DNA of 64,000 bases, from the IMG/VR virus record IMGVR_UViG_3300046727_000675, positions 1-64,000 of that record. One strand, given 5' to 3'. Below the pieces are notes generated by a model. The model was given only the letters and a program-made list of their open reading frames with translations. It made no database searches and had not been told where the DNA came from. The stretch's first letter is position 1. Each line of letters starts with the position of its first letter. Source of the stretch: a virus. This document shows, in pieces, positions 1,696 through 18,150 of the stretch. Both the position numbers and the translations under genes were made by a program.

Positions 1696-2229
1696 GTGCG
1701 CTTAATAGCGCTGTCCGAAAATTTAGGAGTCGCGATCGCCCCCGTGACGAAAGCTCCTCAAAACACGAACGACAAGAGGAAGACCCATGATTCTCTTGGC
1801 CGTCGCCTGCCAAAGAAGCACTCCCGCCCCAATTCGAATCCTCTTCGTGGAAAAGACAGTCCCCTCTCGGCGGCCGGCGCTCCGTATCGGTGGCAGAAGG
1901 GAAAGTCGGGGAACCCGGGCGGCCGGCCGCGCAACGTCATCAGCGACGCGATCCGCGCGGTGCTCGCCGAGGAAGACCCCGAGCTCCGCGTGACCAACGC
2001 GGAGGTCATCGCGCGCGGGCTCGTGGAAGACGCGAAGGGAACGGGCATGTCGCCGGCGCAGCGCGTCGAGGCCGGCGTCGACCCGCGCGTCGCGCTCATG
2101 GCCTCGGATATGGTGCTCGATCGCACCGAGGGAAAGCCCGCGCAGTCGATGATCCTGTCGGGCGGAGAAAATCCTATCAAAGTTCAGATGGAGGAAGTGC
2201 GTGGCAAGCTGTTCTCCAAGCTTGGTTGA
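1696..2229 (+). CDS. terS: Terminase small subunit (DUF5681-like); true start may be the GTG at 1744
   Basis: 'WQKGKSGNPGGRP' and 'VLDRTEGKPAQS' motifs; immediately upstream of terL. Confidence 0.75.
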   Translation: MRLIALSENLGVAIAPVTKAPQNTNDKRKTHDSLGRRLPKKHSRPNSNPLRGKDSPLSAAGAPYRWQKGKSGNPGGRPRNVISDAIRAVLAEEDPELRVTNAEVIARGLVEDAKGTGMSPAQRVEAGVDPRVALMASDMVLDRTEGKPAQSMILSGGENPIKVQMEEVRGKLFSKLG

Positions 2230-3844
2230 GAATCTCCCGCCGGTCTCGCTCGCGGACCAGTTCCGCGCGCTGACGGCGGAGGAGCGGCAGCGCCGCCTCT
2301 CGCTGCTCTCCGACGCGGAGGCGCAGGCCCTCTACTACGACTGGAAGTTCTGGGCGCGGCCGGCGCAGCTCACGCCCGCCGGCGAGTGGTACGCGTGGCT
2401 CGTGATGGCGGGGCGCGGCTTCGGCAAGACGCGGGTCGGCGCGGAGACGGTGCGGGAGTGGGTGCGGGACTTCGCGATCGTGAACCTCATCGGCCCGACG
2501 GTCGACGACGCGCGCGACGTGATGATCGAGGGCGAGTCGGGGATCCTCGCGATCTGCCCGCCGGACGAGCGGCCCGAGTACAAGAAGTCCTCGCGGCAGC
2601 TCGCGTGGCCGAACGGCGCGAAGAGCCTGATTTTCACCGCGGACGAGCCCGAGCGCCTGCGCGGCAAGCAGCACGAGAAGCTGTGGTGCGACGAGGTCGG
2701 CGCGTGGCGCTACCAGGAGTCGTGGGACCAGGCGATGTTCGGGCTGCGGCTCGGCGCCAGGCCCCAGGCCGTCGTCACGACGACGCCGAAGCCGCTGCAG
2801 CTGATCCGCGACCTCATCAAGGACAAGTCGACCTTCATCACCCGGGGCTCGACCTACGAGAACCGCGCGAACCTCGCGCCGGCCTTCTTCGCGAAGATCA
2901 TTACGAAGTACGAGGGCACGCGGCTCGGCCGGCAGGAGCTGAACGCGGAGCTGCTCGCCGACAACCCCGGCGCGCTGTGGCAGCGAAGCCAGATCGACAA
3001 GTGCCGCGTCGTCCGGCTTCCGCTCGACGTGGAGCGCAGCGTGTACGCGCTCGACCCGGCGACGACCTCGACCGAGGAGTCCGACGAGTGGGGCATCATT
3101 GGCGCGGCGCGCGACAAGCAGAACCCCCCGCACTTCTACATCTTCGACGACCGCTCCGAGATTCTCACCCCCGACGCGGCGTGCAAGCGCGCGGTCGCGG
3201 GCTACCACCTCAACAAGTCCGACCGCATCGTCGGCGAGGCGAACAACGGCGGCGACATGATCGAGGCGCTTCTGCGGCACGTGGACCTGAACGTGAGCTA
3301 CCGGAAGGTGACGGCCTCGCGCGGTAAGGTCGTGCGGGCCGAGCCGATCGCGGCGCTGTACGAGCAGGGGCGGGTGCACCACGTCGGGATGTTCGCCGCG
3401 CTGGAAGACCAGATGTGCGACTACAACCCGGCGACGGTGCAGAAAAGCCCGGATCGAATGGACGCGGCGGTGTGGGCGCTGACCGAGCTCAGCGAGGGAA
3501 TGTACACGCTGGGGGTCTTGGAGTACGCGAAGCAGGGCGGGCCGGACGCGGAGACGGGTGCCGCCGCGAAGGCGAACGGAGCGAAGCCGCCGGACCCCCG
3601 CGGCTCGGTGCCCATCACCGCGCCGGAGTCCTCCGGAAAAGTCTGCCCGGCCTGCGGGTCGGGTCTCATAAACCCGATCGCGGGCGGCCAGCTGCGCTGC
3701 AACGCCTGCGCGCACCAGTTCGGCGACGCGGTGGTCGCGGTGCCGGCGGGGCCGGGGCGCGCGAACGGGAACGCGGGGCACGGCGCGAACGGGCACGGCG
3801 CGTTGAGCCCGGCGAGCGGGCGGAAGTTCGGGGACCCGCGATGA
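2201..3844 (+). CDS. terL: Terminase large subunit with a C-terminal Zn-ribbon extension
   Basis: Walker A AGRGFGKT, Walker B 'LWCDE', coupling motif 'TTTP', nuclease motifs 'ALDPA' and 'SPDRMDA'; CPAC..CNAC at the C-terminus. Confidence 0.95.
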   Translation: MASCSPSLVENLPPVSLADQFRALTAEERQRRLSLLSDAEAQALYYDWKFWARPAQLTPAGEWYAWLVMAGRGFGKTRVGAETVREWVRDFAIVNLIGPTVDDARDVMIEGESGILAICPPDERPEYKKSSRQLAWPNGAKSLIFTADEPERLRGKQHEKLWCDEVGAWRYQESWDQAMFGLRLGARPQAVVTTTPKPLQLIRDLIKDKSTFITRGSTYENRANLAPAFFAKIITKYEGTRLGRQELNAELLADNPGALWQRSQIDKCRVVRLPLDVERSVYALDPATTSTEESDEWGIIGAARDKQNPPHFYIFDDRSEILTPDAACKRAVAGYHLNKSDRIVGEANNGGDMIEALLRHVDLNVSYRKVTASRGKVVRAEPIAALYEQGRVHHVGMFAALEDQMCDYNPATVQKSPDRMDAAVWALTELSEGMYTLGVLEYAKQGGPDAETGAAAKANGAKPPDPRGSVPITAPESSGKVCPACGSGLINPIAGGQLRCNACAHQFGDAVVAVPAGPGRANGNAGHGANGHGALSPASGRKFGDPR

Positions 3845-3923
3845 GGGCCTACCTCGTCCTCGCGCTGCCGTGCCTGCTGTTCGTCCTCGTGGTGTGGCGC
3901 GTCGCGCGGTCGCGGAGGGTCTC

Positions 3924-4265
3924 GTGAACCTCGGGCCGGGCGGCCTCTATCTCAAGCCCGAGGGCTTCGCCTTCTGGCAGAGGCTCGGTGAGGTGAAGGA
4001 CGTGGAGTTCCACGCGCCGGCCAACAAGGTGATGGCGCGCTACAACCCGATCGTCCTGCGCGAGACCGAGGAGCTCTCGGTCATCGAGCAGCTGAGGATG
4101 TACTGCGAGCACTACGGGCCGCTGAAGATTCAGTTCAACGCGTACGTCGCGCCGGGCCAGGTGTGGTTCAACGAGGGTGTCTTCATCATGAACGAGGCCT
4201 GGGCCAAGGCGCAGTTCTCGACGTTCGACGCGGCGCTGCTGAAGAGCATGGGGGTGAAGCCGTGA
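3924..4265 (+). CDS. Hypothetical protein
   Basis: Coding-like codon usage; overlapping GTGA start/stop with neighbours. Confidence 0.6.
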   Translation: MNLGPGGLYLKPEGFAFWQRLGEVKDVEFHAPANKVMARYNPIVLRETEELSVIEQLRMYCEHYGPLKIQFNAYVAPGQVWFNEGVFIMNEAWAKAQFSTFDAALLKSMGVKP

Positions 4266-4407
4266 CCAGGCGCTCCGCGTGCGGTCATCGTTCGTCGAAG
4301 TTCATCGGCGGCGAATGCCTGTCGTGCGGTCGCGCGGTGAAATTCGAGATTGTCATTCTTATAGTTATGATTCTGATGGGAATCTTCCATGGAAGGCTGG
4401 GCGGCCT

Positions 4408-4920
4408 GTGACGGATTTCGCCGAGCGGCTCGACGCCCTCCGCCCGCGGCTGCGGAACACGCTGCGGCGCCATGGGTGCCGCGACTACTTCCTCGACGAC
4501 GCGGTGCAGCAGGGGGTCATGCAGGCGTGGCGCCGGCGCGGCACGTTCCGCGGCGAGGCGGCGCTCGCGACTTGGGCGACCCGCGTGACGCTGAACGAGT
4601 TCTTCATGATGGCGCGCGGGAGCAAGATGAGCCGCAACACGCGGAACATGAACGAGGCGGACGAGCTCCGGGCGGCGAGCGAGCCGGACCCGGCGCCGTC
4701 GCCGCTCGACCTGGCCGTCGCCGGCGAGGCGCGCCGCCGCCTGGTGCGCGCGATCGCGCGGCTGCCGCTCGGGCAGCGGTCGATCCTGGCGCGTCAGCTG
4801 CTGGTCGACGAGACGTACAAGGAGCTCGCGGCGAGCTTCGGCACGACCGAGTCGAACATGAAGAGCCAGGCGTTCAAGGGGCGCGCGAAGGTGCGCCGGA
4901 TGCTGGAGGCACGGGCGTGA
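4408..4920 (+). CDS. ECF-type sigma-70 factor
   Basis: Region 2 'DDAVQQGVMQAWRRRGTFRGEAALATWATRVTLN'; region 4 'LPLGQRSIL...TYKELAASFGTTESNMKSQAFKGRAKVR'. Confidence 0.85.
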   Translation: MTDFAERLDALRPRLRNTLRRHGCRDYFLDDAVQQGVMQAWRRRGTFRGEAALATWATRVTLNEFFMMARGSKMSRNTRNMNEADELRAASEPDPAPSPLDLAVAGEARRRLVRAIARLPLGQRSILARQLLVDETYKELAASFGTTESNMKSQAFKGRAKVRRMLEARA

Positions 4921-5177
4921 GGAACTTGACGTTCCAGTCCGGCGACTGCGGGTATCCGGGTCCGCTAAGTCCCGCGCTCGAGCGATCGGAGCGAGACCGC
5001 TTCAGAATACTGGAAGCGCGCGTCCTGCTGTTCGCGGCGCGCAACCGCATATCGCCCGGCGAGACTACCTTGGTGCAGGTGATGACCGGGTCCGGGCCGA
5101 AGCTTTTCCCGCAGTGGCGGCCGGCGGTGGAGTCGATCATGTCCCTGAACATCGACCTGTCGAAGGAGATAAATTGA
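4917..5177 (+). CDS. Hypothetical protein
   Basis: Translationally coupled small ORF. Confidence 0.45.
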   Translation: MRNLTFQSGDCGYPGPLSPALERSERDRFRILEARVLLFAARNRISPGETTLVQVMTGSGPKLFPQWRPAVESIMSLNIDLSKEIN

Positions 5178-5371
5178 GGCGGATCGAGATCAGGACGGCC
5201 GACGCCGCGTGGCTGGCCGAGGTCGTGGTGAGGGAGATCCCCCGCGTCGGGGAGGTCGTCTTGCTCGCGGACCCGGAGCGGACGTTCAAGGTGATCGGGG
5301 TACGGCACGACCTGCGGCAGAACGCGGTGGGAAACCACCTGGTCACGGTGCTGGCGGAGGAGGCGAAGTGA
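5174..5371 (+). CDS. Hypothetical protein
   Basis: AAGGAG RBS upstream; coupled to neighbours. Confidence 0.55.
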   Translation: MRRIEIRTADAAWLAEVVVREIPRVGEVVLLADPERTFKVIGVRHDLRQNAVGNHLVTVLAEEAK

Positions 5372-5622
5372 AACGACGAAGCTTCATCTCATCGGTGCTC
5401 GCGTCGATCGCGGCTGTGCCATTCCTGCGCGCGGAGAAAGCGCTCGCATTCGCGGCGCCGCGGAAGATGAACATGATGCTGGTCGGAACCGGCTCCGTGT
5501 ACGGCGTCTCGCCGTTCGCGGCCGCGAACCAAAAAATACGGCTCGCGCTCGCGCGTCAAAATTTTCAACTGAAGTATTACTGCGAAGGGGCTGTTCCTGG
5601 AGCTAAGGAGGCAACCGCGTGA
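5368..5622 (+). CDS. Twin-arginine (Tat)-signal small protein carrying a portal-like segment
   Basis: N-terminus MKRRSFISSVLASIAAVPFL; the C-terminal 36 aa align without gaps to the portal segment encoded at 9341-9448. Confidence 0.7.
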   Translation: MKRRSFISSVLASIAAVPFLRAEKALAFAAPRKMNMMLVGTGSVYGVSPFAAANQKIRLALARQNFQLKYYCEGAVPGAKEATA

Positions 5623-6083
5623 GGCGTCGCTCTTTCATCTCGGCCCTGGTTGTCGCGGTCGCGTCGCTCGCGTTCCTGAAGGCGGAGACCGCGGCGGGGC
5701 TGCTGGAAGGGCCGGCGGACGAGAACGAGCTGACGATCAGCTACGCCTACGAGATCGGTCGCGGCGGGTTCCTGGACGAGCCGTTCGTCGTCACGGTGAA
5801 CGGCGAGGCGATGAAGTACGGCGAGGACTTCACCGTGAAGGACGGAACGTTCACGTTCAACATTCCGCGCGACGTCAGGCGGGTGAACGCGAACGGGGCG
5901 GTCTCCGGAAGGAGCGGGTCCTCCATAAAGGTGACCGATTCGCGCGGCCTCGCGCCGCTGGACCAGGCCGAGGTCTCCGATTCGAACCGGACGCGCTGGG
6001 TCGACGCGCGGCCACGGCGGTCTTTGGAGGAGCGTTACGCGGGACGGTATCCGACTCCGAAGTTCGGGGAGAAACAGGCGTGA
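5619..6083 (+). CDS. Twin-arginine (Tat)-signal protein with a structural-protein-like beta domain
   Basis: MRRRSFISALVVAVASLAFL; 'VTVNGEAMKYGEDFTVKDGTFTF'; AAGGAGG RBS. Confidence 0.65.
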   Translation: MRRRSFISALVVAVASLAFLKAETAAGLLEGPADENELTISYAYEIGRGGFLDEPFVVTVNGEAMKYGEDFTVKDGTFTFNIPRDVRRVNANGAVSGRSGSSIKVTDSRGLAPLDQAEVSDSNRTRWVDARPRRSLEERYAGRYPTPKFGEKQA

Positions 6084-6222
6084 CGGTACGCTTCACCTTC
6101 GAGAGCGCATTCGCCTGCCGCCAGAGCCTCTGGCTCCTGCGCGCGCTCGCCGCGATCGGGCACGAGGCGAGGCTGAACGCGTGGAGCCGGTCGTTCATGT
6201 TCGAGACCGGCTGGAGGATGTT

Positions 6223-6885
6223 TTGATCTTCAAGACCCCCTATGACTTCGCGAAGGAGCTCGCCGGCCGCGAGTCGCCGCACTCGTTCGACATGGACAAG
6301 GAGAAGGCCGCGGCGGCGCTGCGGGCGCTCGCCGGCCGGATCGAGAAGGACGAAGTCACGCTGCAGGCCGGCGGCGTCTACCGCCAGTCGAAGGTCGGCG
6401 AGTTCAGCATGACGGCGCTCCTGGTCGAGTACAGCGAGCGCGGGGAGGCGGTCGTCGCGCTGCACGGGCCGGGCGACAGCCTGCCGGTGGCGGTGGCGGT
6501 GGCGATCCCGGGCAGCGTGGTCGAGAATGCGACCTGCGAATACGATTTGGACGGAAGCCCCTGCGCCGCTGGGATCATCCCGTCGAAGGATTCCTACACC
6601 GGTTGGGAACACAAGAGCAAGGCCGCGTGGGGACACTTCGCCACGGACAAGAAGATCTCCGGCGACCAGTCGGGCCAGTTCCTGCCGTGTTCCGTTTGCC
6701 TGCGCGAGCCCGACGCCAACGAGGATCACTTCAAGATCGCGGGGCACAAGTACCAGGCGCTGATCGCGTTTGGGTCCCCGATCGATCGCCGCTGCCTGGT
6801 CCCCTGCGCCGCGTGCGGCAAGACGACATTAAACCCGTGGTGTCCGACACACGTCGTCACCTACGAGAACGGAAGCCGAGTTTGA
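6223..6885 (+). CDS. Hypothetical protein with Cys-rich C-terminus
   Basis: GGAGG RBS before TTG; CxxC motifs. Confidence 0.6.
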   Translation: MIFKTPYDFAKELAGRESPHSFDMDKEKAAAALRALAGRIEKDEVTLQAGGVYRQSKVGEFSMTALLVEYSERGEAVVALHGPGDSLPVAVAVAIPGSVVENATCEYDLDGSPCAAGIIPSKDSYTGWEHKSKAAWGHFATDKKISGDQSGQFLPCSVCLREPDANEDHFKIAGHKYQALIAFGSPIDRRCLVPCAACGKTTLNPWCPTHVVTYENGSRV

Positions 6886-7622
6886 GCGCCTCCCCCCAGC
6901 CCGTCGTCCGCAAGCCGCACGTGGCGCAGCGCCGCGACGTGCGCGCGCGGCTCGAGCGCGACGCGGTCCGCGTCGCGGAGGCGGACGCAAGCCGGCCCTG
7001 TTCCCGCGACGGCTGCGCGTCGACCATGCTCGTCTGCCCGACGATGTGGCCCATCGCGGTGGTCGCCGTCGTCTGCTTCGCCTGCGGCCGGGTGCGGGAG
7101 TACAAGGCGGCGCCGATGATCCTTTCGCCGCTCGAGGCGGCGCGGATGTACAAGAACCGCGGATTCGTCACGAAGCGCGGCGTGTCGCACGACGCGGACA
7201 CGAAGACGTGCCCGGCGTCGGACCTCGAGACGCTGGTCGAGCTGATCGTGATGGGGCGAGACGCGGGGATGAACCCGCGCGAGATCGCCGACTCGACCGG
7301 CACGACGATCCACTACGTTGACAACATCCTGCAGCTCGTCGGCGAGAACGCGAAATGCCTGGTCGCGGCGAAGGAAGAAGAAAAAGCGCCGAGGGCGAAG
7401 CGGGACCTGTCGCGCCGCCCCGAGCTCGCGGGCGCGGGGCTGACGCCCCGCGAGGGAGAGGTCCTGGCGCTGGTGACGAAGAAACTGTCCAACGCGGCGA
7501 TCGCCGAGCGGCTGTTCATCTCGCCGTTCACCGTGCGCCACCACGTGGGGCGCCTGCTCGCGAAGCTGCGGGCGGGCTCGCGCCGCGAGTTGTGGGCGCC
7601 GCGTGCGGAGGTCGTGCAGTGA
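6882..7622 (+). CDS. Transcriptional regulator with C-terminal LuxR/GerE HTH
   Basis: 'LTPREGEVLALVTKKLSNAAIAERLFISPFTVRHHVGRLLAKL'; N-terminal CxxC motifs. Confidence 0.85.
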   Translation: MSASPQPVVRKPHVAQRRDVRARLERDAVRVAEADASRPCSRDGCASTMLVCPTMWPIAVVAVVCFACGRVREYKAAPMILSPLEAARMYKNRGFVTKRGVSHDADTKTCPASDLETLVELIVMGRDAGMNPREIADSTGTTIHYVDNILQLVGENAKCLVAAKEEEKAPRAKRDLSRRPELAGAGLTPREGEVLALVTKKLSNAAIAERLFISPFTVRHHVGRLLAKLRAGSRRELWAPRAEVVQ

Positions 7623-7957
7623 CCCCTTGGCTCGTCATCTTCGCGATCGCGGCGGTCTGCGGCTTCGCCGGCTGGGTGTTTAGCCCGGCGCGTCCGGCGG
7701 CGGTGAGGATCCCGAAGCGCGATCCGAACGCCCCGTGCCCGGTGTGCGGCGACACGAACGGCCGGCTCCTGGCGGTGGCGGAGAAAACGAACGACGCGAA
7801 GTCGAAGGTGCTGCTGCAGCGGGAGTGCCAGTCTTGCGGTGCGCGGTCGTACGAGCTCCCGGTCGTGAGGGATCTCACGGTCGAGAAGGCCTGGCCGGCC
7901 CGCGCGGACTTCCGGAGCAGCCTGACGAACGTCACGCCGCTGCGGAGGAAGGCTTGA
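7619..7957 (+). CDS. Membrane-anchored Zn-finger protein
   Basis: Hydrophobic N-terminus; CPVC and CQSC. Confidence 0.6.
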   Translation: MTPWLVIFAIAAVCGFAGWVFSPARPAAVRIPKRDPNAPCPVCGDTNGRLLAVAEKTNDAKSKVLLQRECQSCGARSYELPVVRDLTVEKAWPARADFRSSLTNVTPLRRKA

Positions 7958-8025
7958 CCTGGGTCGTCGTCTTAGGATTTTTGTTGAACTACGCTCTGCA
8001 AATCTCGCTCCACAGGAGAACGCTC

Positions 8026-8325
8026 ATGACAGTCAAGGACAATCTGGACGCGATCGTCGCGCAGCTGAAGCAGAAGCTCCAGGACGCGCAGGACGCGGCG
8101 AAGGCGAACGCGGACGCGGTCACCGCCGAGCTCGGCCGCGTCAACGACACGATCGCGGCGCTGAAGACGGCGCAGCAGGGCGGCTCGGTCTCCGACGCCG
8201 ACCTGCAGGCGGCGATCGACTCGCTCTCCCCGGTGGCGGACGGGCTGGGCGCGGTGGTGACGAACCTCGGCGCGACGACCGCGGCCGCGGCGGCGGAAGA
8301 CCCGGCTCCCACGCCGGGCGCCTAG
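8026..8325 (+). CDS. Small Ala-rich coiled-coil protein
   Basis: AGGAG RBS then ATG; heptad-like pattern. Confidence 0.65.
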   Translation: MTVKDNLDAIVAQLKQKLQDAQDAAKANADAVTAELGRVNDTIAALKTAQQGGSVSDADLQAAIDSLSPVADGLGAVVTNLGATTAAAAAEDPAPTPGA

Positions 8326-8401
8326 ACAGACTTTCAACCGAGAGCGAGACGGCCTGTCACGCGTCTCGCCTCAATCTTCTCCTCATGAAAGGACTTGCGC
8401 G

Positions 8402-8581
8402 ATGAGCGGAAACGACGCGAGGCTGCTGCACTCGACCGGGGTGGACGACGCGAGCCAGTTCGAGAAGGCGCCGGAGACGGTCGAGGAGTTTCTGGAGAAG
8501 TACTCGGAGGACATTCCGAAGGAAGCTTTGGAGAAAGAGACAAAAACTAAATTGTCCGCCCAGCCCGCGGGGAAAGCGTAG
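8402..8581 (+). CDS. 59-aa acidic protein (not in the ORF track) containing a partial KYSED tag
   Basis: Manual translation MSGNDARLLHSTGVDDASQFEKAPETVEEFLEKYSEDIPKEALEKETKTKLSAQPAGKA*; AAAGGA upstream. Confidence 0.55.
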   Translation: MSGNDARLLHSTGVDDASQFEKAPETVEEFLEKYSEDIPKEALEKETKTKLSAQPAGKA

Positions 8582-8593
8582 CGACCTAAAAAC

Positions 8594-10819
8594 TTGGCCA
8601 GCCCGAACAATTCGATTGTCATCCGCCCGCTGACGCAGCTGGCGTCGCTGTTCTCCGACAAGAAGCCGGCGTTCGAGGCCCCGGCGGGCTACATCGAGGG
8701 CGTCGACGCCGCGAAGTGGCCGTCGCCGCTGCAGCCCGTCGCGCCGATGGGCCCCGCCGGCACCGAGCCGAAGGCCTTCCAGTTCTACGAGGGGCAGAAC
8801 CTGCAGTGGACGCCGCGCTTCGACGCGGAGTACTCCGCCGCGGACCTCAAGGCGCTCGCCACCTACCCGCTCGTCCGCATCTGCATCGAGAACGTGAAGG
8901 ACGTGATCTGCGACATGCCGTGGCAGATCCGGCCGCGCCCGACGCCGGGCGAGTCGATCAAGGAGAACGCGAAGCGCGCGGCCGGCGACAAGGCGATCCT
9001 GAAGGCGACGCGCTTCCTCGAGCGCCCCGACGGCCAGCACACGTGGGACGAGTGGCTGCGCCCGTGGCTCGACGACCTCATCGTGATCGACGCGCCCACG
9101 GTCCTGGTGCGCCGCAACTTCGGCAAGGGCACGCGGCCCGGCGGCGACGGCGACCTCCGCGAGCTGCGCGTCCTGCGCGGCGACTCGATCTCCGTGTACA
9201 TCGACCAGAACGGCTGGAGCCCGAACCCGCCGTCGATCGCGTACGCCCAAAACTGGTGGGGCCTGCCGCTCGTGGACATGACGCGCGACCAGTGCCTGTA
9301 CCGCCCGCGGAACATCGCGCCGCGCAACACGGTGGCGTCGCAGCTCTACGGCTACTCCCCGGTCGAGCAGCTCGCGCCGGAGCTGCAGATCGGGATCGCC
9401 CGTCTCGCGTTCGTCCTCGCCTACTACAAGGACGGCTCGGTGCCGGGGGTCGTGCAGGTCGCGCCGAAGGGGACGACGCCGGAGCAGATCAAGGAGGCGG
9501 CGCAGTGGATCAACTCGGACATCGCGGGGAACCTCGCGAAGCGCCGGCAGTGGAACATCATCCAGGGCTTCCAGGAGGACGGGAAGGCCGAGCAGATCAT
9601 CATGACGAAGGAGCCGCTGCTCGCCGACCTCTACGACGAGAAGCACATCCGCGAGGTGGCGTTCGGCATCGGCGTCAGCCCGCAGCGGCTGATGAAGTCG
9701 ATGAACCGCGCGTCGGCGGAGCAGTCGGACGACGCGGCGGAGACCGAGGGCACGCGGCCGTACGTGCGGTCGGTGCGCGGCCTCATGAACCACGTGCTGC
9801 AGGTGGTGATGGGGCTCGAGGAGTACGAGTTCGTCATCGACCCGGTCAAAGAGCTGGACATGGCGAAGCAGGCCGAGGCGCTGACGGCGAAGGTCGGCAA
9901 GGCGCTGATGACGCCGAACGAGGGCCGCGAGGCGCTGGGCCTCGACCGCGACCCGACGCCCGAGGCCGACAAGCTCGGCGTGATCACAGGCACGGGCTTC
10001 GTGACGCTCGAGCAGACGGCGCAGGCGGCGAACACCGCGGCGCAGGCCGCAGTTCAACCGGGAGGGAAAGATGGCGGTGATAACGCGCCGGTGGGTAAGC
10101 CGGGAGGAGCTGGAAAGGGAGCGGACGCGGGAAAGTCCGCGCGCTCGAAACCTAATGGACATGATCCAGCGGAGGATCATCGCGTACCGCGACCAGTTAA
10201 CTCGCTCGGGTTCGCCGCGGGAGCCGCGCCCGTAGCGCCTCCGGCGGTCGGCAAGTACTCCGAGGACGAGGCGCGCGACGAGCAGGGGCGGTGGACAGAG
10301 GGCGGAGAATCTTCGGCTGATGAGAAGGAGAAGTTGAGTAAAGCATTATGGAGCTGGCAGTCGGGCAGCGATGATGAAGGGGCAAAGGCCGAGCATTACA
10401 TCCAATCGGGCGAGCCGGAAGGCAGCGAGATCGTGAAGGGCATCCGGAACGAGACCTTCGGCGTGACGGCCTGGCGCGGCATGTTCGTTGAGAACGACGA
10501 CGCGATCCTTAAGCTGAAGACGGGGGACACGCTGCAGCTGATGCCGAGCTCGTTCAGCGATGACCGTAAAGTAGCCGCAAAGTTTTCAACGGGTGAGACG
10601 CTCGGGATGGAGGGCGAAAAGGGCTGGGGTGGGGTCATATTGCGCGTTAACAAGACCGCTGATGGGGCCGAGCCGCACGGCATCATGGTCGGCGACCGCG
10701 GTCATCCGGCTTGGCGGCAAGAAAATGAGATCATCACCGGCGGTCAGTTCACCGTGACGCGCGTCAACAAGTCGAAGAAGGCTACAACGCTTTTTATCTC
10801 GCAGAAGGGGATATTCTGA
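8594..10819 (+). CDS. Portal protein with a C-terminal ADP-ribosyltransferase-like extension
   Basis: Portal motifs 'LYGYSPVEQ', 'YYKDGSVPG', 'AFGIGVSPQRL', 'MTPNEGREALGL'; then a linker, the KYSED tag and an R-S-E motif set (WRG, SSFS, QENE). Confidence 0.9.
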   Translation: MASPNNSIVIRPLTQLASLFSDKKPAFEAPAGYIEGVDAAKWPSPLQPVAPMGPAGTEPKAFQFYEGQNLQWTPRFDAEYSAADLKALATYPLVRICIENVKDVICDMPWQIRPRPTPGESIKENAKRAAGDKAILKATRFLERPDGQHTWDEWLRPWLDDLIVIDAPTVLVRRNFGKGTRPGGDGDLRELRVLRGDSISVYIDQNGWSPNPPSIAYAQNWWGLPLVDMTRDQCLYRPRNIAPRNTVASQLYGYSPVEQLAPELQIGIARLAFVLAYYKDGSVPGVVQVAPKGTTPEQIKEAAQWINSDIAGNLAKRRQWNIIQGFQEDGKAEQIIMTKEPLLADLYDEKHIREVAFGIGVSPQRLMKSMNRASAEQSDDAAETEGTRPYVRSVRGLMNHVLQVVMGLEEYEFVIDPVKELDMAKQAEALTAKVGKALMTPNEGREALGLDRDPTPEADKLGVITGTGFVTLEQTAQAANTAAQAAVQPGGKDGGDNAPVGKPGGAGKGADAGKSARSKPNGHDPAEDHRVPRPVNSLGFAAGAAPVAPPAVGKYSEDEARDEQGRWTEGGESSADEKEKLSKALWSWQSGSDDEGAKAEHYIQSGEPEGSEIVKGIRNETFGVTAWRGMFVENDDAILKLKTGDTLQLMPSSFSDDRKVAAKFSTGETLGMEGEKGWGGVILRVNKTADGAEPHGIMVGDRGHPAWRQENEIITGGQFTVTRVNKSKKATTLFISQKGIF

Positions 10820-13800
10820 CCGTGCAGATTGTCGAGTACAACTCGGAGCTGTTGACGGTGCCATTCGACCCGCAGCGGATGACGCGCGGGAAGACGGAGA
10901 AGCTCGCCAAGTACTCGGAGGACGAGGCGCGCGACGAGCAGGGACGGTGGAGCTCTTCCGGCGGCTCCGGCGAGAACCGCCAGTTTCTCGACATCGTCGC
11001 CGAAGACCACGGGGCGAAGGTTGACTCGAGCGGCGTGACGGGCTCATTCGAACTGAAGCGCGACGAGACGTTCTACCGCGCGGAGGCCAATCCCGATCGC
11101 GCGCGGCGCTCTGGGTTGAAGGCGAGCCTGCCGCCGGAGGTAGCGGAGGGCGCCGACAAGGAAGATCACAAGGCCCTGACCGGCGTGTACCTCACCGATA
11201 AGGAGACGGCGACCGCGTACTTGAACGGACGCCTCGATGGCAAGGGCGAGGTGATCGCGGTCCATCTTCCGGAGGGGACGAGAATCTACCAGGACCCCGT
11301 GGACGACGAGGCGATCTTCGTGCGGGAGAGCCTTCCATCGCACGCGGTCGAGGGCGGCAGGCAGATGAGGGTATTCAAGCTCTCCCACGGCGACGCGCGG
11401 ACGATCATCCACCCGGGGCGCCTAGCGCCGACGTCGATCCTGGCGAAGCACCGGCTCGAGAAGATCCTGGCCAACGCCTTCGGCAAGATGCGCCGGAAGA
11501 CGGTGCGCGCGCTGCGGCGCGAGGCGGGGATCGCGGCGAAGGCGCTGCTCTCCAAGCAGCGCAAGTTTGACTCCGTGCAGTTCAATCTCGACGAGGCGGA
11601 CGCAAAGAAGGTCCTCGCGATCGCGGTCGACGAGCAGGACTGGGACCCGAAGGGACGCGACCTCGAGCCGCACGCCACGGTGCTGTTCGGCTTTGACGGC
11701 GCGACGTTCGACCAGGTCGAGGCGCTCACGCGCGGCACGGGTGACTGCCCCGCGGAGCTCGGCGAGCTGTTCTGCTTCCCGGCCGGAGACCACGGGTCGC
11801 CGCTGGTGATCCGGTTGAAGTCGCCGGAGCTGGTCGCGCTGCACGACAGGCTGTCCGCGCTGCCGCACACGGACACGCACGATGAATACATCCCGCACGT
11901 CTGCGTCGGCTATCTTAAGCCCGAGGCGGCGGAGAAGTATGTCGGTAAAGACTATGCGGGCCAGGGTGAGACGATCGTCCTCAAGGATCTGATCTTCTCG
12001 CTGCGCGACAAGACGCGCTTGTCGTTGGAGAAGGCGCTCGAGTATCTGAAGTATAGTGAAGATCAAGCAAGAGATGAGAATGGAAGATTTGCGTCTGAAG
12101 AAGACTCTGAGGGACGCGCAAAAACAATTTTGTACCATGGAACTACCGAAGAGGTAGCAAAAAAGATTTTTGATGAAGGATTAGACGCTTCAAGAGCTCC
12201 TGGGGGAACCTTTGCCACTGATTCCAAGCTTAGCGCGTTGGGGTACGCGAAGGGAGGAGCAAAATTTGAAGCTATTGAACGGGGAATGTCGAAGGAAGAT
12301 CGTAACAATCAATTAATCGGATTGGTGATCATAAAAGACCCCGAAAAAGCGGGGTTCAAGTATCTTCAAGGAGCCCCGGGATATTATTCTTCTACTAGCA
12401 ATGTTTCTCCTAACTTTGTAGATCGTGTTGAATTTTATAGATATGGAGATATATCGTCTTCAAATCCAAAACCAGCAAAAATTATTTCTAAAAATGCGTC
12501 AAAAAATAGTGTGGAAATTTACGTTCCAATTTTACTGAAAGAAAGTAAGACTGAGAAATTTACGAAGGCACTCGACGACGCGACGCAGCAGATCCTCGAC
12601 TCGCTCGCCGCGGAGTGGGAGGCGCTGGCGAAGGCCGCCGTCCTGCCGCTGACCGACGCGTCGACCGCGGGCGCCGACGCCGGCGCGCTGCAGCTCGACA
12701 TCACCGGCGACGACATGCTCGGCCGGGTCAACACCGTGGCCCGGGAGTGGGCCGCGGACCGCGCCGCGGAGCTGGTCGGCATGCGGTTCACGGATGACGG
12801 CGACCTGGTTCCGAACCCCGACGCGCGCTGGGCGATCTCCGATACGACGCGGGAGAGGTTGCGCGACGCGATCGCGCGGGTCTTCGCGGAGGAGCAGCCG
12901 ACGCTGAAGGACATCGAGGACGCGATCGCGGACGCGGGGATCTTCGACGACAACCGCGCGACGATGATCGCCCGGACCGAGGTCAGCCGGGCGCAGGCGC
13001 AGGGGAACCTCGACGCCTGGAAGACGAGCGGGATGGTCGAAGAGGTCAACTGGGTCCTGTCCGACGATCACGATGACGATGATATCTGCAATGAGAACGA
13101 AGAGGAGAGCCCGTACGCGCTGGGCGAGGTGCCGGAGTTCCCGGCGCACCCCAACTGCATGTGCGGGCTGACGCTCGGCCGGCTGAAGGGCGAGCCGGAG
13201 GACGCGGAGAAGGTGCTGAAATACTCGGATGACGAGGATCGCGACGAAAATGGACGTTGGACCGGTGGTGCCACGCACGGAACGTCGGTGTCCGCGGCGA
13301 AGAAGATCATGAAGGAAGGAATTAAATCAGGAAAAGTTTTAGGAAATGGGCAGCTCGGCTCTGCCTATGTCTCGCGCGACCCCGTGGTGGCGTTGTCGTT
13401 CGCGAAAGAAGCTGGGATGAACGAGTACACGCGGCTTTATCCTAACGCGCGCGTCGCTGAGCTTGACAGCAAAGCGAAGGCCGCTCTCGTGGTTCTCAAG
13501 CCTGGCGTAGAAAATAATTGGACACAGGAGCCCGATCGCCAGATTTTTAGGACCGAGAAGACGATTCCGGCTTCTAAGATTGATCGTGTGGAGATTTATT
13601 CGGTGAAGTCGATCAAGGATAGCATTGGCACGGGAAGTCTTCCGACCCCGGAAAAAATTATTCGCAAGGACGCTTCATCATCTGAGGAAGACACATTTTA
13701 CATCGCGGCAATCTTTGAAGAGAATGCGGAGGAGAGCTAGCATGCCATACTCGACCGTAGATCAGGTTCCGTCCTACGTGCCGGCGGGAAAGCGCGCGCA

Positions 13801-13969
13801 GTGGATGGCCGTCTGGAACTCGGCGCGCAAGGCCGCGCTGAAGGACGGGATGCCGGACAAGGACGCGGAGGCGAAGGCGTTCCGCGAGGCCAACGGCGTC
13901 GCCGGGCCCGGGTCGGAGAAGATCACGAAGTATAGTGACGACCAAGAACGCGATGATCATGGACGTTGG
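10253..13969 (+). repeat. Dispersed 42-nt / 14-aa repeat K-YS[ED]D[EQ]xRD[ED]xGR[WF], five copies
   Basis: Copies at 10253-10294, 10909-10950, 12049-12090, 13219-13260 and 13928-13969; the first two are near-identical at DNA level. Confidence 0.95.
10822..13740 (+). CDS. MuF/SPP1 gp7-like head morphogenesis polyprotein with three ART-like domains and a 2H phosphoesterase (Acb1-like) domain
   Basis: MuF core 'RATMIARTEVSRAQAQG...W...C...PAHPNCMC'; HATV and HVCV 2H motifs; YHGT and HGTS ART motifs; three KYS[ED]D tags. Confidence 0.85.
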   Translation: MQIVEYNSELLTVPFDPQRMTRGKTEKLAKYSEDEARDEQGRWSSSGGSGENRQFLDIVAEDHGAKVDSSGVTGSFELKRDETFYRAEANPDRARRSGLKASLPPEVAEGADKEDHKALTGVYLTDKETATAYLNGRLDGKGEVIAVHLPEGTRIYQDPVDDEAIFVRESLPSHAVEGGRQMRVFKLSHGDARTIIHPGRLAPTSILAKHRLEKILANAFGKMRRKTVRALRREAGIAAKALLSKQRKFDSVQFNLDEADAKKVLAIAVDEQDWDPKGRDLEPHATVLFGFDGATFDQVEALTRGTGDCPAELGELFCFPAGDHGSPLVIRLKSPELVALHDRLSALPHTDTHDEYIPHVCVGYLKPEAAEKYVGKDYAGQGETIVLKDLIFSLRDKTRLSLEKALEYLKYSEDQARDENGRFASEEDSEGRAKTILYHGTTEEVAKKIFDEGLDASRAPGGTFATDSKLSALGYAKGGAKFEAIERGMSKEDRNNQLIGLVIIKDPEKAGFKYLQGAPGYYSSTSNVSPNFVDRVEFYRYGDISSSNPKPAKIISKNASKNSVEIYVPILLKESKTEKFTKALDDATQQILDSLAAEWEALAKAAVLPLTDASTAGADAGALQLDITGDDMLGRVNTVAREWAADRAAELVGMRFTDDGDLVPNPDARWAISDTTRERLRDAIARVFAEEQPTLKDIEDAIADAGIFDDNRATMIARTEVSRAQAQGNLDAWKTSGMVEEVNWVLSDDHDDDDICNENEEESPYALGEVPEFPAHPNCMCGLTLGRLKGEPEDAEKVLKYSDDEDRDENGRWTGGATHGTSVSAAKKIMKEGIKSGKVLGNGQLGSAYVSRDPVVALSFAKEAGMNEYTRLYPNARVAELDSKAKAALVVLKPGVENNWTQEPDRQIFRTEKTIPASKIDRVEIYSVKSIKDSIGTGSLPTPEKIIRKDASSSEEDTFYIAAIFEENAEES

Positions 13970-15703
13970 ACCGAGGCAGCTTCAACCAAGAAAGATCATC
14001 GTGATGCTATGAAGTGGCACGACGCGAAAGCGGCGGAGGAAGAAGCTGCAGGACATCCGGTGACGGCAGATTACCACCGTGAAGCTGCAGGAAAACATCA
14101 ATATGCGGTCAGCATGGCAGGGAAAAATGGTCCTGGTGTTGACCCGGATCATTCAAAATCAGCAAATCGATCTTCAAAAGAAGCTAACCGGGCTTCTCAG
14201 TACGCGGCAAGACAAGATAAAGAAAAATCATCAGGAGGTGAAATGAAGAAGACCGAGGTGCCGGACAACGAGAAGCAGAGCCAGGTCGGGGTCGGCTACG
14301 AGAACCCGAGCTCCCGGCCGGGCGCGACGTGCGCCGGCTGCGTCCACTTCATCTCGCCCGACCGCTGCGAGCACGTGCAGGGCCCGATCGCCGCGGCGGC
14401 GTGGTGCCTGAAATTCATCAAGTGCGCTGAGGAGGAAAAGACCGTGACGACGACGCTCAAGAAGTTCATCCCGTTCGCGAAGGTGGACAACTCGATCGAC
14501 CCCGCGACCAAGCTGCCGCGCCGCGAGGTGTGGGGCATCGTCACCGCCGAGGTCCCCGACAAGGAGGACGAGGTCTGCGACTACGCGAAGTCAAAGCCGT
14601 TCTACCAGGCGGTGATCGACGAGATGTCCAAGGCCACGGACGGCAGGAACATGTTCCCGCTGCGCGAGATGCACGGGCTCTCCGCCGCGGGCAAGTGCAT
14701 TGGCTTCGAGTTCCGCGACGCCGACCGCGAGATCTTCATGGGCTTCAAGGTCGTCGACGACCAGGCCTGGAAGAAGGTCGACGAGGGCGTGTACACGGGC
14801 TTCAGCCAGGGCGGGTCGCTCGTCGGCGCGCTGGCGCCGGACCCGGTCTTCGAGGGCTGCATGCGCTACACGGCGAACCCGAGCGAGGTGTCGCTGGTCG
14901 ACAACCCGTGCCTCGCGGCCGCGCACTTCGCGTACGTGAAGGCGGACGGCTCGGTCGAGCTGCGTAAGTTCAAGCGGACGGAGGTCGCGCCGACGTCTAC
15001 GCGGCTCGAGAAGCTGGAAAAAGAAGTTGCGGATCTTCGTAAGGCGACGGGCACGGCCCCGCTCACGAAGACGGTCGACGGCGAGGCGCTCGCCGCGGAC
15101 GCGTTCGCGATCGCCGGCGACGCGAAGAAAGTTTCCACGTGGCGGCTGCCGCTCAGGTTCGCGACGAAGCAGAAGTCGGCGGCCTACGTGGCGCGCGCCG
15201 CGCTGCTCGTCAAGTTCAGCCCGAGGCTGTTCACGGACGCGGAGGCGAAGCAGGCCCTGAAGGCGATCGCGACGGCCGCGGACTGGGCGGGGGTGGACCC
15301 GCTGGCCGTCGTCCTCGAGTTCATCAAGGTGGGCGACCTCCTGCGCGGCGGGCTGCGCAAGCGCGTCAACAAGCTGGCGAAGACCCGGGACCCGGGCCAC
15401 CGGCTGAGCTTCGTGGACGCGGACCTCGGGAAGATGTCGATCGTCGCGCAGCGCCCGGCGAACGCGCAGGCGGACCTGGAGAAGGGCATGTACGAGGTCG
15501 GGCAGCTCGCCTGCCTCGTGCAGCAGCTCTCGTACCTCGTCTACGCCGCGGTGTACGAGCGCGAGCAGGAGCAGGACGGGTCGCTTCTCCCGCAGGACCT
15601 GACGGAGAACGTCGACGCGCTGCTCGACACGCTCGTCGCGATGCTCGCCGAGGAGGCGGGCGAGCTCAGCGAGGAGCTGAACTCGCGGGCCCACGGCGCC
15701 TAG
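13742..15703 (+). CDS. Prohead maturation protease (XkdF/HK97-like) with N-terminal ChaB-like, His-rich and HiPIP-like domains
   Basis: 'MPYSTVDQVPSYVP...WMAVWNSA' is ChaB-like; protease core 'VWGIVTAEVPDKEDE', 'LREMH', 'YTGFSQGG', 'EVSLVDNPC'. Confidence 0.85.
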   Translation: MPYSTVDQVPSYVPAGKRAQWMAVWNSARKAALKDGMPDKDAEAKAFREANGVAGPGSEKITKYSDDQERDDHGRWTEAASTKKDHRDAMKWHDAKAAEEEAAGHPVTADYHREAAGKHQYAVSMAGKNGPGVDPDHSKSANRSSKEANRASQYAARQDKEKSSGGEMKKTEVPDNEKQSQVGVGYENPSSRPGATCAGCVHFISPDRCEHVQGPIAAAAWCLKFIKCAEEEKTVTTTLKKFIPFAKVDNSIDPATKLPRREVWGIVTAEVPDKEDEVCDYAKSKPFYQAVIDEMSKATDGRNMFPLREMHGLSAAGKCIGFEFRDADREIFMGFKVVDDQAWKKVDEGVYTGFSQGGSLVGALAPDPVFEGCMRYTANPSEVSLVDNPCLAAAHFAYVKADGSVELRKFKRTEVAPTSTRLEKLEKEVADLRKATGTAPLTKTVDGEALAADAFAIAGDAKKVSTWRLPLRFATKQKSAAYVARAALLVKFSPRLFTDAEAKQALKAIATAADWAGVDPLAVVLEFIKVGDLLRGGLRKRVNKLAKTRDPGHRLSFVDADLGKMSIVAQRPANAQADLEKGMYEVGQLACLVQQLSYLVYAAVYEREQEQDGSLLPQDLTENVDALLDTLVAMLAEEAGELSEELNSRAHGA

Positions 15704-15779
15704 GATTTTTCACGCAGTCGGAAGGATTCACCCGCCGATCGGTCGCGCGGCGGGATTCGGAAGCGAAGGAGAAACAACG

Positions 15780-16418
15780 ATGAAGATTCAACTCGAAGAC
15801 CTCGTGAAGGCGCACTCGGGCCTCGCGAGCCACTTCACGAAGGCGGCGGAGTTCCACGCCGCGGCGCACGACCTGCACAAGGCCCACGCCGCGTTCGCGA
15901 AGGCCACCGCCGACGGCATGGAGGACGGCGACGTCCACAAGGGCTACTTCACGAAGGCCGCCGGCCACCACGAGGCGCACGCCGCGCTCCACAAGGGCAT
16001 GGCGGAGCACTCCGCCGGCATGGCCGCGGGCATGAACACCAAGGCCAAGGAAGTGGACCCGAACGACAAGGACGCCGTCGCGAAGGCCGCGCGGGAAGAG
16101 GCCGAGGCCAAGGCCGCGCTCGAGGCCGCCGCGGGCGGGACCGAGTCGGCGCTCGACAAGCTGATGACGGAGACCGTCGCGCGCGTCACGAAGAAGGCGC
16201 TCGAGGCCTTCGAGAGCGATCCGGCGATCGCCGCGCGCATTCAGGAGGGCGTGTTGAGCCGCGTGAACGCGGTGTTGGGAAGCACGATCGTCCCGACCAA
16301 GGTGAAGGGCGCGTTCGAGACGGCGCCGACGCTGATCAGGCGTCCCGGCCAGCCGGACCCGTCCGCCGCGGAGGTCGAGAAGGTCGACGCGTCGCTCCAG
16401 GACCTGGTGCAGGCGTAG
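15780..16418 (+). CDS. Probable scaffold protein (His/Ala-rich helical)
   Basis: Position between protease and capsid genes; strong AAGGAG RBS. Confidence 0.6.
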   Translation: MKIQLEDLVKAHSGLASHFTKAAEFHAAAHDLHKAHAAFAKATADGMEDGDVHKGYFTKAAGHHEAHAALHKGMAEHSAGMAAGMNTKAKEVDPNDKDAVAKAAREEAEAKAALEAAAGGTESALDKLMTETVARVTKKALEAFESDPAIAARIQEGVLSRVNAVLGSTIVPTKVKGAFETAPTLIRRPGQPDPSAAEVEKVDASLQDLVQA

Positions 16419-16488
16419 CTCGCAGCGGTTTTGACCCGCGCGCCGGACGCGCCGCGGAAATTTTGGCAGCACAGGAGCTGAGAACAAA

Positions 16489-18150
16489 ATGAAGATTCCA
16501 CAGGAGCTATACGCCTACGCCACGCTCGAGAGCCGCGGGCAGATCGCGAAGGCGCTGCAGGACAAGGGGGTCGAGAGCCTCGTCAAGGCGGCTCGCGCCA
16601 TCCCGCCGAAGGAGTGGTCGCTGGACCATCCACTCGTCAAGAAGGCGGGCCGCACCCTCGTCAAGGCCGGCGTCACCACGTCGCTCGGCTTCAACTTCTT
16701 CGACCTGCGCGGCCCCGCGCTGATGATCTTCCCGCTGCTCACCCCGTTCATCCAGATGATCGGGCGGCAGGGCAAGGTCAACGCGGGCGTCGGCACGGCG
16801 GCGCACTGGAAGGCCACGCGCAACCCGAACTCGAACTACACCTACGCCGGCGTCCAGGAAGGGCAGCGCAACGCGACGGCGACCCCGGACGAGATCGACT
16901 ACCTGGCGACGTACAAGGAGCTCGGCATGGAGGGCGGCGAGACCTTCACCGCGCAGTACGCGGGCGAGGGGTACACCGACAACCTGGCCGACGAGCACTT
17001 CCGCAACCTGGCGCGCCTCCGGCTCCAGGAGGAGATGATCACCCTCTGGGGCAACTCCGGCGTCGCCACCGGCAACAACGGCTTCGCCCTCGGGCAGGCC
17101 ACCACACCGACGCTCACGCTCGGCGCGGGCACGAGCCCGTTCGGGAACGCCGCCAACGTGTACGTCGCGGTGGTCGCGATCACCGGCATGGGCGTCAACC
17201 CCGGCGGGCAGGCCGGCTACGCCGCGCCGCCGACGGTCGCGGGCGGGCTCACCACGAGCTACACCCGCACGAACGCCGACGGCACGACCATGAACGTCAG
17301 CGCCGGCGTCAGCGCGATCTCGAACGTCTCGGCCGCGCAGCTCACGAACACGACCGCGCAGCAGGTGAACGCGTCGATCCCCGCGATGAAGGGCGCCGTG
17401 GCCTACGCGTGGTACGTCGGCGTCAACGCCAACTCCACGATCGGGACCCTGAAGCTGGTCGCGATCACCGCGTGGCCGTCGGTCACGCTGAAGACGCTGC
17501 CGGCGGTGGGGGCGCAGGCCGGGAACGCGGCGGGCCTCTCCGTCGACAACTCGTTCCAGCCCACGGACTTCGACGGGCTCGGCTCGTACTCCTTCACCAA
17601 GGGGAACTGGACGGACATGAACGGCGGCTCGTTCACCCCGCAGGGCAACGGCCAGGTGGCGGAGATCGAGTCCGACCTCGCCTTCCTCTGGGACAACTAC
17701 CAGGCGCAGCCGGACGCGATCTGGTGCTCGGCGGACGTGCGCGCCGCGCTCGAGTCGGCGATCATCTTCTCGTCGACCGGGCAGAACTCGTTCATCTTCC
17801 AGTACGACCGGGCGACGCAGGACTCCGGCCTGCTGGGCGGGTTCATCGTCAGCGCCTACAAGTCGAAGTACTCGATCAGCCCGACGGGCGGCGTGGCGAT
17901 CCCCATCCGGATCCACCCGATGTTCCCGGCCGGCACGCTCGTGTACGACATCAACACGAACCCCTACCCGCACTCCAAGGTCCCGGCGGTGCGGCAGTTC
18001 CTCATGCAGCGCGACTACTACTCGATCGAGTGGCCGATCGTCACGCGCATGTGGACGTTCGGCACGTACGTCCACGAGGTGCTCGCGCACTACATGCCGT
18101 GGATCACGGCGATCCGGACCGGCGTCGGCCCGTTCGTCAAGCCGGCCTAA
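16489..18150 (+). CDS. Major capsid protein with a Thr/Gly/Ala-rich insertion domain
   Basis: Synteny, highly biased codons, HK97-fold-like segments ('EEMITLWGN', 'DFDGL', 'IPIRIHPMFPAGT'). Confidence 0.85.
   Translation: MKIPQELYAYATLESRGQIAKALQDKGVESLVKAARAIPPKEWSLDHPLVKKAGRTLVKAGVTTSLGFNFFDLRGPALMIFPLLTPFIQMIGRQGKVNAGVGTAAHWKATRNPNSNYTYAGVQEGQRNATATPDEIDYLATYKELGMEGGETFTAQYAGEGYTDNLADEHFRNLARLRLQEEMITLWGNSGVATGNNGFALGQATTPTLTLGAGTSPFGNAANVYVAVVAITGMGVNPGGQAGYAAPPTVAGGLTTSYTRTNADGTTMNVSAGVSAISNVSAAQLTNTTAQQVNASIPAMKGAVAYAWYVGVNANSTIGTLKLVAITAWPSVTLKTLPAVGAQAGNAAGLSVDNSFQPTDFDGLGSYSFTKGNWTDMNGGSFTPQGNGQVAEIESDLAFLWDNYQAQPDAIWCSADVRAALESAIIFSSTGQNSFIFQYDRATQDSGLLGGFIVSAYKSKYSISPTGGVAIPIRIHPMFPAGTLVYDINTNPYPHSKVPAVRQFLMQRDYYSIEWPIVTRMWTFGTYVHEVLAHYMPWITAIRTGVGPFVKPA

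Follow-up and report, generated by a model that had tools for sequence, protein, structure and literature searches.

The mini-ORF, its portal-like part and its leader

The DNA considered here is the first 64 kb (64,000 nt, referred to as the window) of the 87,304-nt virus record IMGVR_UViG_3300046727_000675 in IMG/VR, which has been rated complete by CheckV. The window has a GC content of 67.6%, and near-identical DNA is present in soil and rhizosphere metagenome contigs. A small open reading frame (ORF) of 84 codons, termed the mini-ORF below, has been found here to join an export-type leader to a segment homologous to phage portal proteins. This ORF had been described in an earlier sequence-only reading, made without database searches, and the coordinates and letters given there are correct. 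The features needed for its description are the following, positions being those of the window:

5356..5363, plus strand: Shine-Dalgarno-like GGAGGAGG, 4 nt ahead of the mini-ORF GTG and within the final codons of the upstream ORF
5368..5622, plus strand: mini-ORF (P0001), 84 residues, GTG at 5368 and TGA at 5620-5622; a singleton
5368..5436, plus strand: RR-type leader, codons 1-23, with KRRSFIS, a hydrophobic core and FL-R-AE
5434..5604, plus strand: portal-derived stretch at its widest extent, residues 23-79, as aligned with the portal of a Streptomyces phage
5491-5604, plus strand: robust core of that stretch, residues 42-79, with YG-SP, the first stem helix and the G-VPG turn
5530..5604, plus strand: patch of rare codons rich in A and T at third positions, codons 55-79, overlapping the best-conserved portion of the portal-like part
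5605..5611, plus strand: AAGGAGG, the Shine-Dalgarno sequence of the next ORF, 7 nt ahead of its GTG at 5619 and within the final mini-ORF codons
5619..6083, plus strand: next ORF (P0003), 154 residues, with a paralogous RR leader; a singleton
8594..10819, plus strand: resident portal gene, 741 residues, with a PF04860 core and a C-terminal extension (Pfam expectation value, E, 7.7e-18, 65.2 bits)

Sequence comparison confirms that the mini-ORF carries a true homologue of a conserved segment of HK97-type portals. Codons 43-78 (5494-5601) align without gaps with residues 250-285 of the resident portal (9341-9448), and the 14 identities over 36 residues counted in the earlier reading are exact and exceed chance by BLASTP, by shuffling and by hidden Markov model (HMM). 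BLASTP between the two proteins gives 34.7 bits (E 2e-7) over 63 ungapped columns, and the Smith-Waterman score of 76 was reached in none of 5000 shuffles (mean 30.2, standard deviation 4.2, maximum 63; Gumbel p 5e-7). A family HMM was built from 121 portal homologues and run on 1224 six-frame pieces of the window and 1700 of the 87-kb genome; within the window it matched only the portal, the gene adjoining the portal, through the fused C-terminal domains that the two share, and the mini-ORF, the last at model positions 242-278 of 767 with E 6.8e-6 (9.4e-6 in the genome). A comparison with portal profiles had been proposed in the sequence-only reading, and it favours homology: hhalign against an alignment of 44 portals gives 94.2% (E 1.1e-7, 38 columns), PHROG 2662 'portal protein' matches with E 4.4e-4 and is the only PHROGs name obtained, and Pfam Phage_portal matches the same portal-like residues below its threshold (E 0.039, 13.6 bits, under the 39.1-bit cut-off). 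Among 50,697 records of cultured phages, tblastn with the mini-ORF matched 18, in each case within the portal gene (best E 1e-3). Sixteen of these genes are annotated as portal or putative portal protein and the other two as gp34, a product annotated as portal protein in other records of the phages concerned, C31 and BT1.

The description of the segment as a conserved portal region has also been borne out, as it holds five of the 34 invariant columns of the portal alignment (A1) and its identity among portals averages 67%. An AlphaFold model of the resident portal, for which 44 homologues were used, matches the solved portals of phage 812, HK97, a gene transfer agent (GTA) and T5 (Foldseek E down to 1.4e-14); there the segment comprises a short helix, a long helix at residues 256-280 and a turn before the clip strands. 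The long helix is presumably the first stem helix leading into the clip. In the mini-ORF, a helix is predicted at the equivalent place, residues 49-74, by a single-sequence AlphaFold2 (AF2) run of low confidence (predicted local distance difference test, pLDDT, 58). With 84 residues, of which 37-57 correspond to a portal core of about 450, the mini-ORF does not comprise the full wing-stem-clip-crown fold. No second portal fragment was found by the family HMM in any frame of the 87-kb genome, and a decayed full portal pseudogene around the mini-ORF has been ruled out, no further portal piece being present in any frame.

The first part of the mini-ORF has a different source. Read by eye, the leader is composed of KRRSFIS, followed by SVLASIAAVPFL and then RAEKALA, and residues 1-23 match the start of P0003 (BLASTP 15/40 identities, E 4e-7); when the leader is compared with the six-frame pieces of the genome, E is 3.7e-4 by BLASTP and 4.7e-4 by phmmer. 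Both ORFs open with [K/R]RRSFIS, a hydrophobic core and FL[R/K]AE, and the similarity at the DNA level takes in the GGAGGC..GTGA start region, with about 40% divergence between the paralogues. DNA patterns of the RRSFIS type occur twice in the window against 0.08 expected, and in the genome the motif is found only at these two N-termini. By these comparisons, the mini-ORF leader is a diverged duplicate of the P0003 leader. Since this duplicate is joined to a portal piece, the mini-ORF is, on sequence comparison, a two-part chimera, made up of the leader (residues 1-22), the portal piece (from 23 or 42 to 79) and five residues overlapping the next ribosome-binding site.

The leader had been called a twin-arginine translocation (Tat) signal in the sequence-only reading. 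Of this proposal the RR-type motif stands; no Tat-signal profile from Pfam or NCBIfam matched at E <= 1, which is weak evidence given that HMMER filters easily drop short motifs. A weak lead has been obtained in the ESM Atlas, where the entry at rank 8 (score 0.90) carries TAT_signal on 11% of its cluster members; the Atlas otherwise returned unnamed small-protein clusters, with structural rows at template modelling (TM) scores of at most 0.51 and a model pLDDT of 0.45. A family of proteins combining an RR leader with a structural fragment is not supported for P0003, which does not significantly resemble any of the structural proteins that the genome encodes.

The accessory block and its genomic setting

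The mini-ORF is part of a compact block of genes, which lies between the terminase and portal genes:

2201-3844: large terminase gene
4279..6226, plus strand: accessory block, an ORF for a sigma factor of the extracytoplasmic-function (ECF) type, ending at 4920, followed by five small ORFs

The sigma ORF matches the NCBIfam family sigma70-ECF (E 6.3e-20), and promoter-like sites occur at 4337-4371. The five small ORFs start at 4917, 5174, 5368, 5619 and 6080, each start overlapping the preceding stop by 4 nt (GTGA or TTGA), and a Shine-Dalgarno-like motif 4-9 nt upstream is clear in four of the five and weaker at 6080. At the mini-ORF the overlap is GTGA on both sides, its GTG overlapping the TGA of the ORF at 5174-5371 and its TGA the GTG of the ORF at 5619-6083. 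Three ORFs of the chain open with [G/T]TG AGG, AGG making up only 7.4% of arginine codons, and the second codon of the mini-ORF is AAA, which accounts for 7.5% of lysine codons; each of these choices creates the upstream TGA. These choices are read here as a sign of selection for coupled translation and hence as evidence that the mini-ORF is translated, probably as a link in a coupled operon. No known RNA element was found in the region, the lone sub-threshold match, to a small nucleolar RNA (snoRNA)-like model, being placed elsewhere.

The nearest relatives of the resident portal in prokaryote genomes (40-58% identity; loci L074-L078) lie in four Acidobacteriota metagenome-assembled genomes (MAGs) and one Binatia MAG. 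Because four of these five prophage relatives are found in Acidobacteriota MAGs, a soil host of the Acidobacteriota type is suggested for this phage. In none of the five, nor in the IMG/VR phage L008, did the mini-ORF or P0003 match anything outside portal genes; within the five, the mini-ORF matches only the portals and P0003 matches nothing. No match was obtained in the same six loci for the sigma ORF or for the ORFs at 5114-5371, 4917-5177 and 5174-5371, and the sole match of the ORF at 6080-6226 has E 0.064, in L078. Between terminase and portal, the prophage relatives have only homologues of the small genes at 6181 and 7355. Since the block is missing there, it is read as a lineage-specific accessory insertion between the terminase and portal genes.

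Further features have been observed around the block. A gene of the LuxR type with a helix-turn-helix (HTH) follows it at about 6882-7622. A short acidic motif of the KYSEDEARDEQGRW type recurs in the window at 10240-10300, 10903-10974, 13195-13278 and 13889-14038, that is, in the C-terminal extension of the portal, in the large ORF at 10822-13740 and in the ORF after that, and L008 has about 10 occurrences in the giant ORFs located behind its portal (11280-21400). The motif seems to delimit domains in cargo or polyvalent head proteins, possibly as a processing site.

As for its distribution, the mini-ORF is a singleton. Among 1.84 billion representatives (E <= 0.001) the only protein found was the mini-ORF product itself, and 5.8 billion clusters yielded identical copies only; its own cluster has two members on 14 contigs, which differ only in how the GTG start is written. 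Contigs from four of the 20 listed soil or rhizosphere runs showed 0 differing letters over the mini-ORF. IMG/VR scans with P0001, P0003 and P0006, a portal 86% identical to the resident one, found nothing, as did a metagenome scan with P0006. An IMG/VR pattern scan with a three-sequence alignment of the segment found 52 loci, with identities of 38-50%. Of these, 50 match inside a portal gene, as judged by a long open frame of 334-804 codons (412 or more where the locus leaves the frame uncut), and the other two are partial portal copies beside a full portal gene. The homologous fusions that the earlier reading had proposed to look for have therefore not turned up: only identical copies were recovered, all 52 IMG/VR loci are portal genes or partial copies of them, and none of the 52 holds a second ORF of leader plus portal fragment. 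In the literature, covered mostly at the level of abstracts, no description was found of an ORF combining a leader with a portal fragment, or of a portal decoy.

Origin of the portal piece and the readings it allows

Over a 48-residue segment, the identity of the mini-ORF to the 121 family portals averages 0.32 and reaches 0.42 at most, the values among the portals themselves being 0.67 on average and 0.38 at the lowest, so that nearly all pairs of portals are more alike. Of 19 columns conserved at 90% or more in the family of the resident portal, eight are kept and 11 lost; among the lost residues are the E, Q, A, E and G that hardly vary in the helix. A recent duplication of the resident portal has been ruled out, for the DNA similarity is no more than the shared amino acids give and the protein is nearer to other portal lineages. 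The portal of the Streptomyces phage RemusLoopin (phiC31 group) gives a better match than the resident one (41.2 bits, 26/61 identities or 43%, E 5e-10, residues 23-79), and that of L008, a phage of 46% GC, matches with 48.6% identity over 35 residues. Because other portal lineages match better, the donor is taken not to be the resident portal, and we read it as the portal gene of another lineage, unsampled or much diverged. A donor of low GC is possible but unproven: the L008 gene uses codons identical to those of the mini-ORF at five shared residues, and portals of the phiC31 type from high-GC phages match the mini-ORF equally well. With blastn against phages, nothing significant was found for the region, the best match being to a Streptomyces-phage portal, over 30 nt with 90% identity (E 0.2).

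Taken together, the mini-ORF is explained here as a young, lineage-specific chimeric ORF carrying a portal relic, a reading which we moderately favour. Its first ~23 codons and their ribosome-binding region would go back to an old duplication of the beginning of the adjacent RR-leader gene, and the next ~37-57 codons would be a captured and heavily diverged portal piece, not stemming from the resident portal and comprising YG-SP and the first stem helix, the block in which HK97-type portals are most conserved. The capture would have taken place by recombination into the accessory ECF-sigma block, and the ORF would have survived as a translated link in the coupled chain, one concrete role being that of handing ribosomes to the next gene. 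The product would be a leader-bearing peptide of 84 residues, either exported or seated in the membrane, in which the likeness to portals would be a historical relic and not a working mimic, with no portal-related function. As in a remnant, the mini-ORF is a gene fragment in which residues conserved in the family have been lost. The signs of neutral decay that the earlier reading had named as speaking against a decoy are present in part, in that conservation has been lost at 11 of the 19 columns and one patch of 25 codons includes 15 rare ones; a disrupted frame is not seen in the mini-ORF, where the open frame, the Shine-Dalgarno sequence, the start and the coupled stops are all in place.

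The GC content at third codon positions (GC3) drops from 0.79 over the leader to 0.60 over the portal-like part (5494-5622), with 0.81-0.95 in the neighbouring genes and 0.97 in the equivalent segment of the portal. The 15 rare codons, each with a share of at most 7% of its synonymous family in the genome, are concentrated in codons 55-79, in comparison with one in 24 over codons 31-54. The patch could reflect a donor of lower GC, selection for open RNA ahead of the next start, or both. Alternatively, the mini-ORF might be an untranslated relic or spacer, its open frame a by-product of DNA with 68% GC and its AT-richer 3' part an unstructured initiation region for the next gene. The low GC3 of the portal-like part and its codon score, at the 3.7th percentile of true in-frame windows, are in agreement with a spacer, as are a frame that is open for 149 codons whatever the start, the end of the patch at the Shine-Dalgarno sequence of the next gene and the singleton status; against it stand the mini-ORF's own Shine-Dalgarno sequence at 4 nt and the 4-nt overlaps at both ends, which are formed as at the other junctions of the chain, the best codon score among the six frames, which for the portal-like part is reached by only 1.3% of off-frame windows, and the features that the leader has kept relative to its paralogue. 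An untranslated spacer is thus held to be improbable.

Several observations weigh against regarding the portal-like part as a mere relic. Amino acid conservation is highest within the patch of rare codons, where third positions are shifted towards A and T; this fits a low-GC donor or selection on RNA, and it could also mean that the peptide matters. Against the resident family, 48 residues align without a gap in an open frame, and that this has been kept with more than half of the conserved residues changed hints at selection on the frame or the peptide. Likewise, the hallmarks of an export signal have been kept in the leader despite the ~40% divergence in DNA, which suggests that the product is used. 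Translation and export of the mini-ORF are themselves predicted from sequence signals.

These points lend themselves to a second explanation, in which the product has been co-opted as an exported peptide of the ECF-sigma operon. It might modulate the envelope or act in superinfection exclusion, with a function unrelated to portals, the amphipathic and net-basic helix derived from a portal having been recruited as new building material. Such a role would fit a gene whose Shine-Dalgarno sequence, start, leader and frame are intact and coupled to the neighbours, whose adjacent gene has a paralogous RR leader, giving two exported products in one operon, and whose block is headed by an extracytoplasmic-function sigma factor; the helix predicted at 49-74 and the gapless frame kept open through deep divergence are likewise in its favour. 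It is countered by the absence of any homologue wherever searches were made, by the low-confidence fold (pLDDT 58 in AF2 and 0.45 in the Atlas), by the cluster of rare codons and by the lack of a match to any Tat-signal or other family profile. Moreover, a passenger of 57 residues with a single helix is an odd cargo for Tat. Co-option is therefore considered a possible but rather unlikely account.

The sequence-only reading had gone further and proposed that the portal-like segment acts as a decoy for a portal sensor, as a poison for the portal ring of a competitor or as an anchor for assembly, and none of these roles has gained positive support. In general terms, a leader-tethered fragment of the stem helix would block the portal subunits of a competing phage or a defence protein that senses portals. 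The fragment is a real homologue of the helix on which subunits pack, and its resemblance to foreign portals is no weaker than that to the resident one, which would suit a weapon against competitors. Portals are assembled, and Avs-type sensors act, in the cytoplasm. By the positive-inside rule, as applied here to the KRR N-terminus and the one hydrophobic span, the portal-like part should be placed outside the cytoplasm, and the decoy reading would be in conflict with the leader because export would put the fragment away from cytoplasmic portals and sensors. It is further weakened in that the fragment does not reproduce the portal of the phage itself; the 11 lost columns, with the near-invariant residues of the helix among them, also tell against a mimic, as do the lack of conservation in any other phage searched and the lack of a described decoy of this kind in the literature, as far as the abstracts cover it. 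Portal sensors do exist: according to a recent preprint, Avs1-4 bind directly to the folds that they recognise, and newer Avs families make use of extended interfaces (bioRxiv 10.64898/2026.01.04.697583). Sensors that read folds and extended interfaces would speak against the decoy reading too, since a single helix of ~37 residues offers little fold. Three findings had been named in the sequence-only reading as speaking against a decoy, namely the lack of a significant portal profile hit, the lack of homologous fusions elsewhere and signs of neutral decay; the second has been made in full and the third in part. A portal mimic is judged very improbable, and the same low standing is given to a variant in which the product serves as 'portal bait', a dominant-negative peptide from a foreign portal lineage that would intercept the subunits of a competitor, or a sensor, at the membrane or the Tat machinery.

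Comparison with known systems

The portal-like part invites comparison with portals of the HK97 type (PF04860). Residues ~42-79 of the mini-ORF are homologous to the portals of the resident family, of IMG/VR phages and of phiC31-group and Brevundimonas phages, and the helix is predicted at the equivalent place. Unlike these proteins, the mini-ORF product is fused to an export-type leader, cannot form a portal and falls below the Pfam cut-off. The leader, for its part, can be set beside Tat signal peptides, in which a twin-arginine motif precedes a hydrophobic core and a c-region whose residues at -3 and -1 are small. It resembles them in that RR-x-F-I stands close to its N-terminus, its core is moderately hydrophobic and its c-region includes a basic residue and a site similar to A-x-A, and it differs from them in that no Pfam or NCBIfam Tat profile is matched, export being predicted by motif only.

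Partial copies of portal genes have been observed in other phages. In an IMG/VR contig of 13,192 nt (G001; locus L071, which is the whole contig), the interval 2485-8859 holds an array in which a full portal gene of 732 residues is followed by ORFs of 452 and 450 residues, which start with the C-terminal half of that portal (A1 positions ~190/200-445) and end with Ntox37 and glutamine-deamidase toxin domains. Small ORFs stand between these cassettes, the one after the second being Imm35-like (E 8e-5, below the cut-off), and the series is closed by a fourth, frameshifted portal remnant (profile positions 157-292), which covers the portal block of the mini-ORF. Over a shared 300 nt the partial copies are 98, 94 and 80% identical, the 80% copy being the frameshifted one. 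A second locus, L072 (G002) at 108-2672, is listed together with this array. The contig looks like an array of orphan toxin/immunity cassettes with the portal as trunk, unless it is an artefact of assembling strain variants, and its partial copies indicate that, in other phages, pieces of portal genes do form ORFs of their own and then decay.

Orphans of Rhs and CdiA are trunk-fragment cassettes of polymorphic toxin loci, and the mini-ORF is similar to such cassettes in that a partial trunk copy stands as a small ORF of its own, apart from the full gene. It differs from them in having neither an in-frame toxin nor an immunity module behind it, only ~5-6 residues following the fragment; in P0003, no toxin or immunity family was found with Pfam, NCBIfam or PHROGs. 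Moreover, the mini-ORF lies 3 kb upstream of the portal and not downstream, carries a leader and, at an amino acid identity of at most 50%, is too diverged to serve as a recombination arm. Toxins with a MuF trunk have been described (Zhang 2012, PMC3482391; Jamet 2017, PMC5576092), and the word 'orphan' is not used for them there (0 occurrences in Jamet 2017).

The same portal block has been found interrupted elsewhere. In a prophage from an Acidobacteriota MAG (L077, 5983-9753), a portal ORF of 1256 residues contains an in-frame insert of ~375 residues whose flanks are precisely ...LYGQ and SPTEQ..., which places it where the block kept by the mini-ORF begins. This insert begins with C and ends with N, after which S follows, and it looks like an intein; among the listed portal homologues, three carry a LAGLIDADG family according to precomputed Pfam domains. 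Given the cassettes of G001 and the insert of L077, a stray portal piece is unsurprising. Together they mark this portal block as a hot spot where recombination occurs and mobile elements insert, a by-product of this analysis that may matter more than the mini-ORF itself.

A further parallel is provided by chimeric ORFans and gene remnants at the mosaic joints of phage genomes. Like these, the mini-ORF is lineage-specific, is put together from pieces of two unrelated genes, has atypical codons and is without homologues; it differs in that both donors can be named and that the ORF fits tidily into an operon with coupled translation. A peptide that did bind portals or their sensors would represent a new class of weapon between phages or against defence, and nothing here points that way. 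The case also serves as a caution, since a protein with genuine homology to a structural protein need not be its mimic. In our assessment, the mini-ORF belongs to a known kind, that of the chimeric ORFan or gene relic, and with both donors nameable it offers a worked example of how phage accessory operons build small ORFs from scraps.

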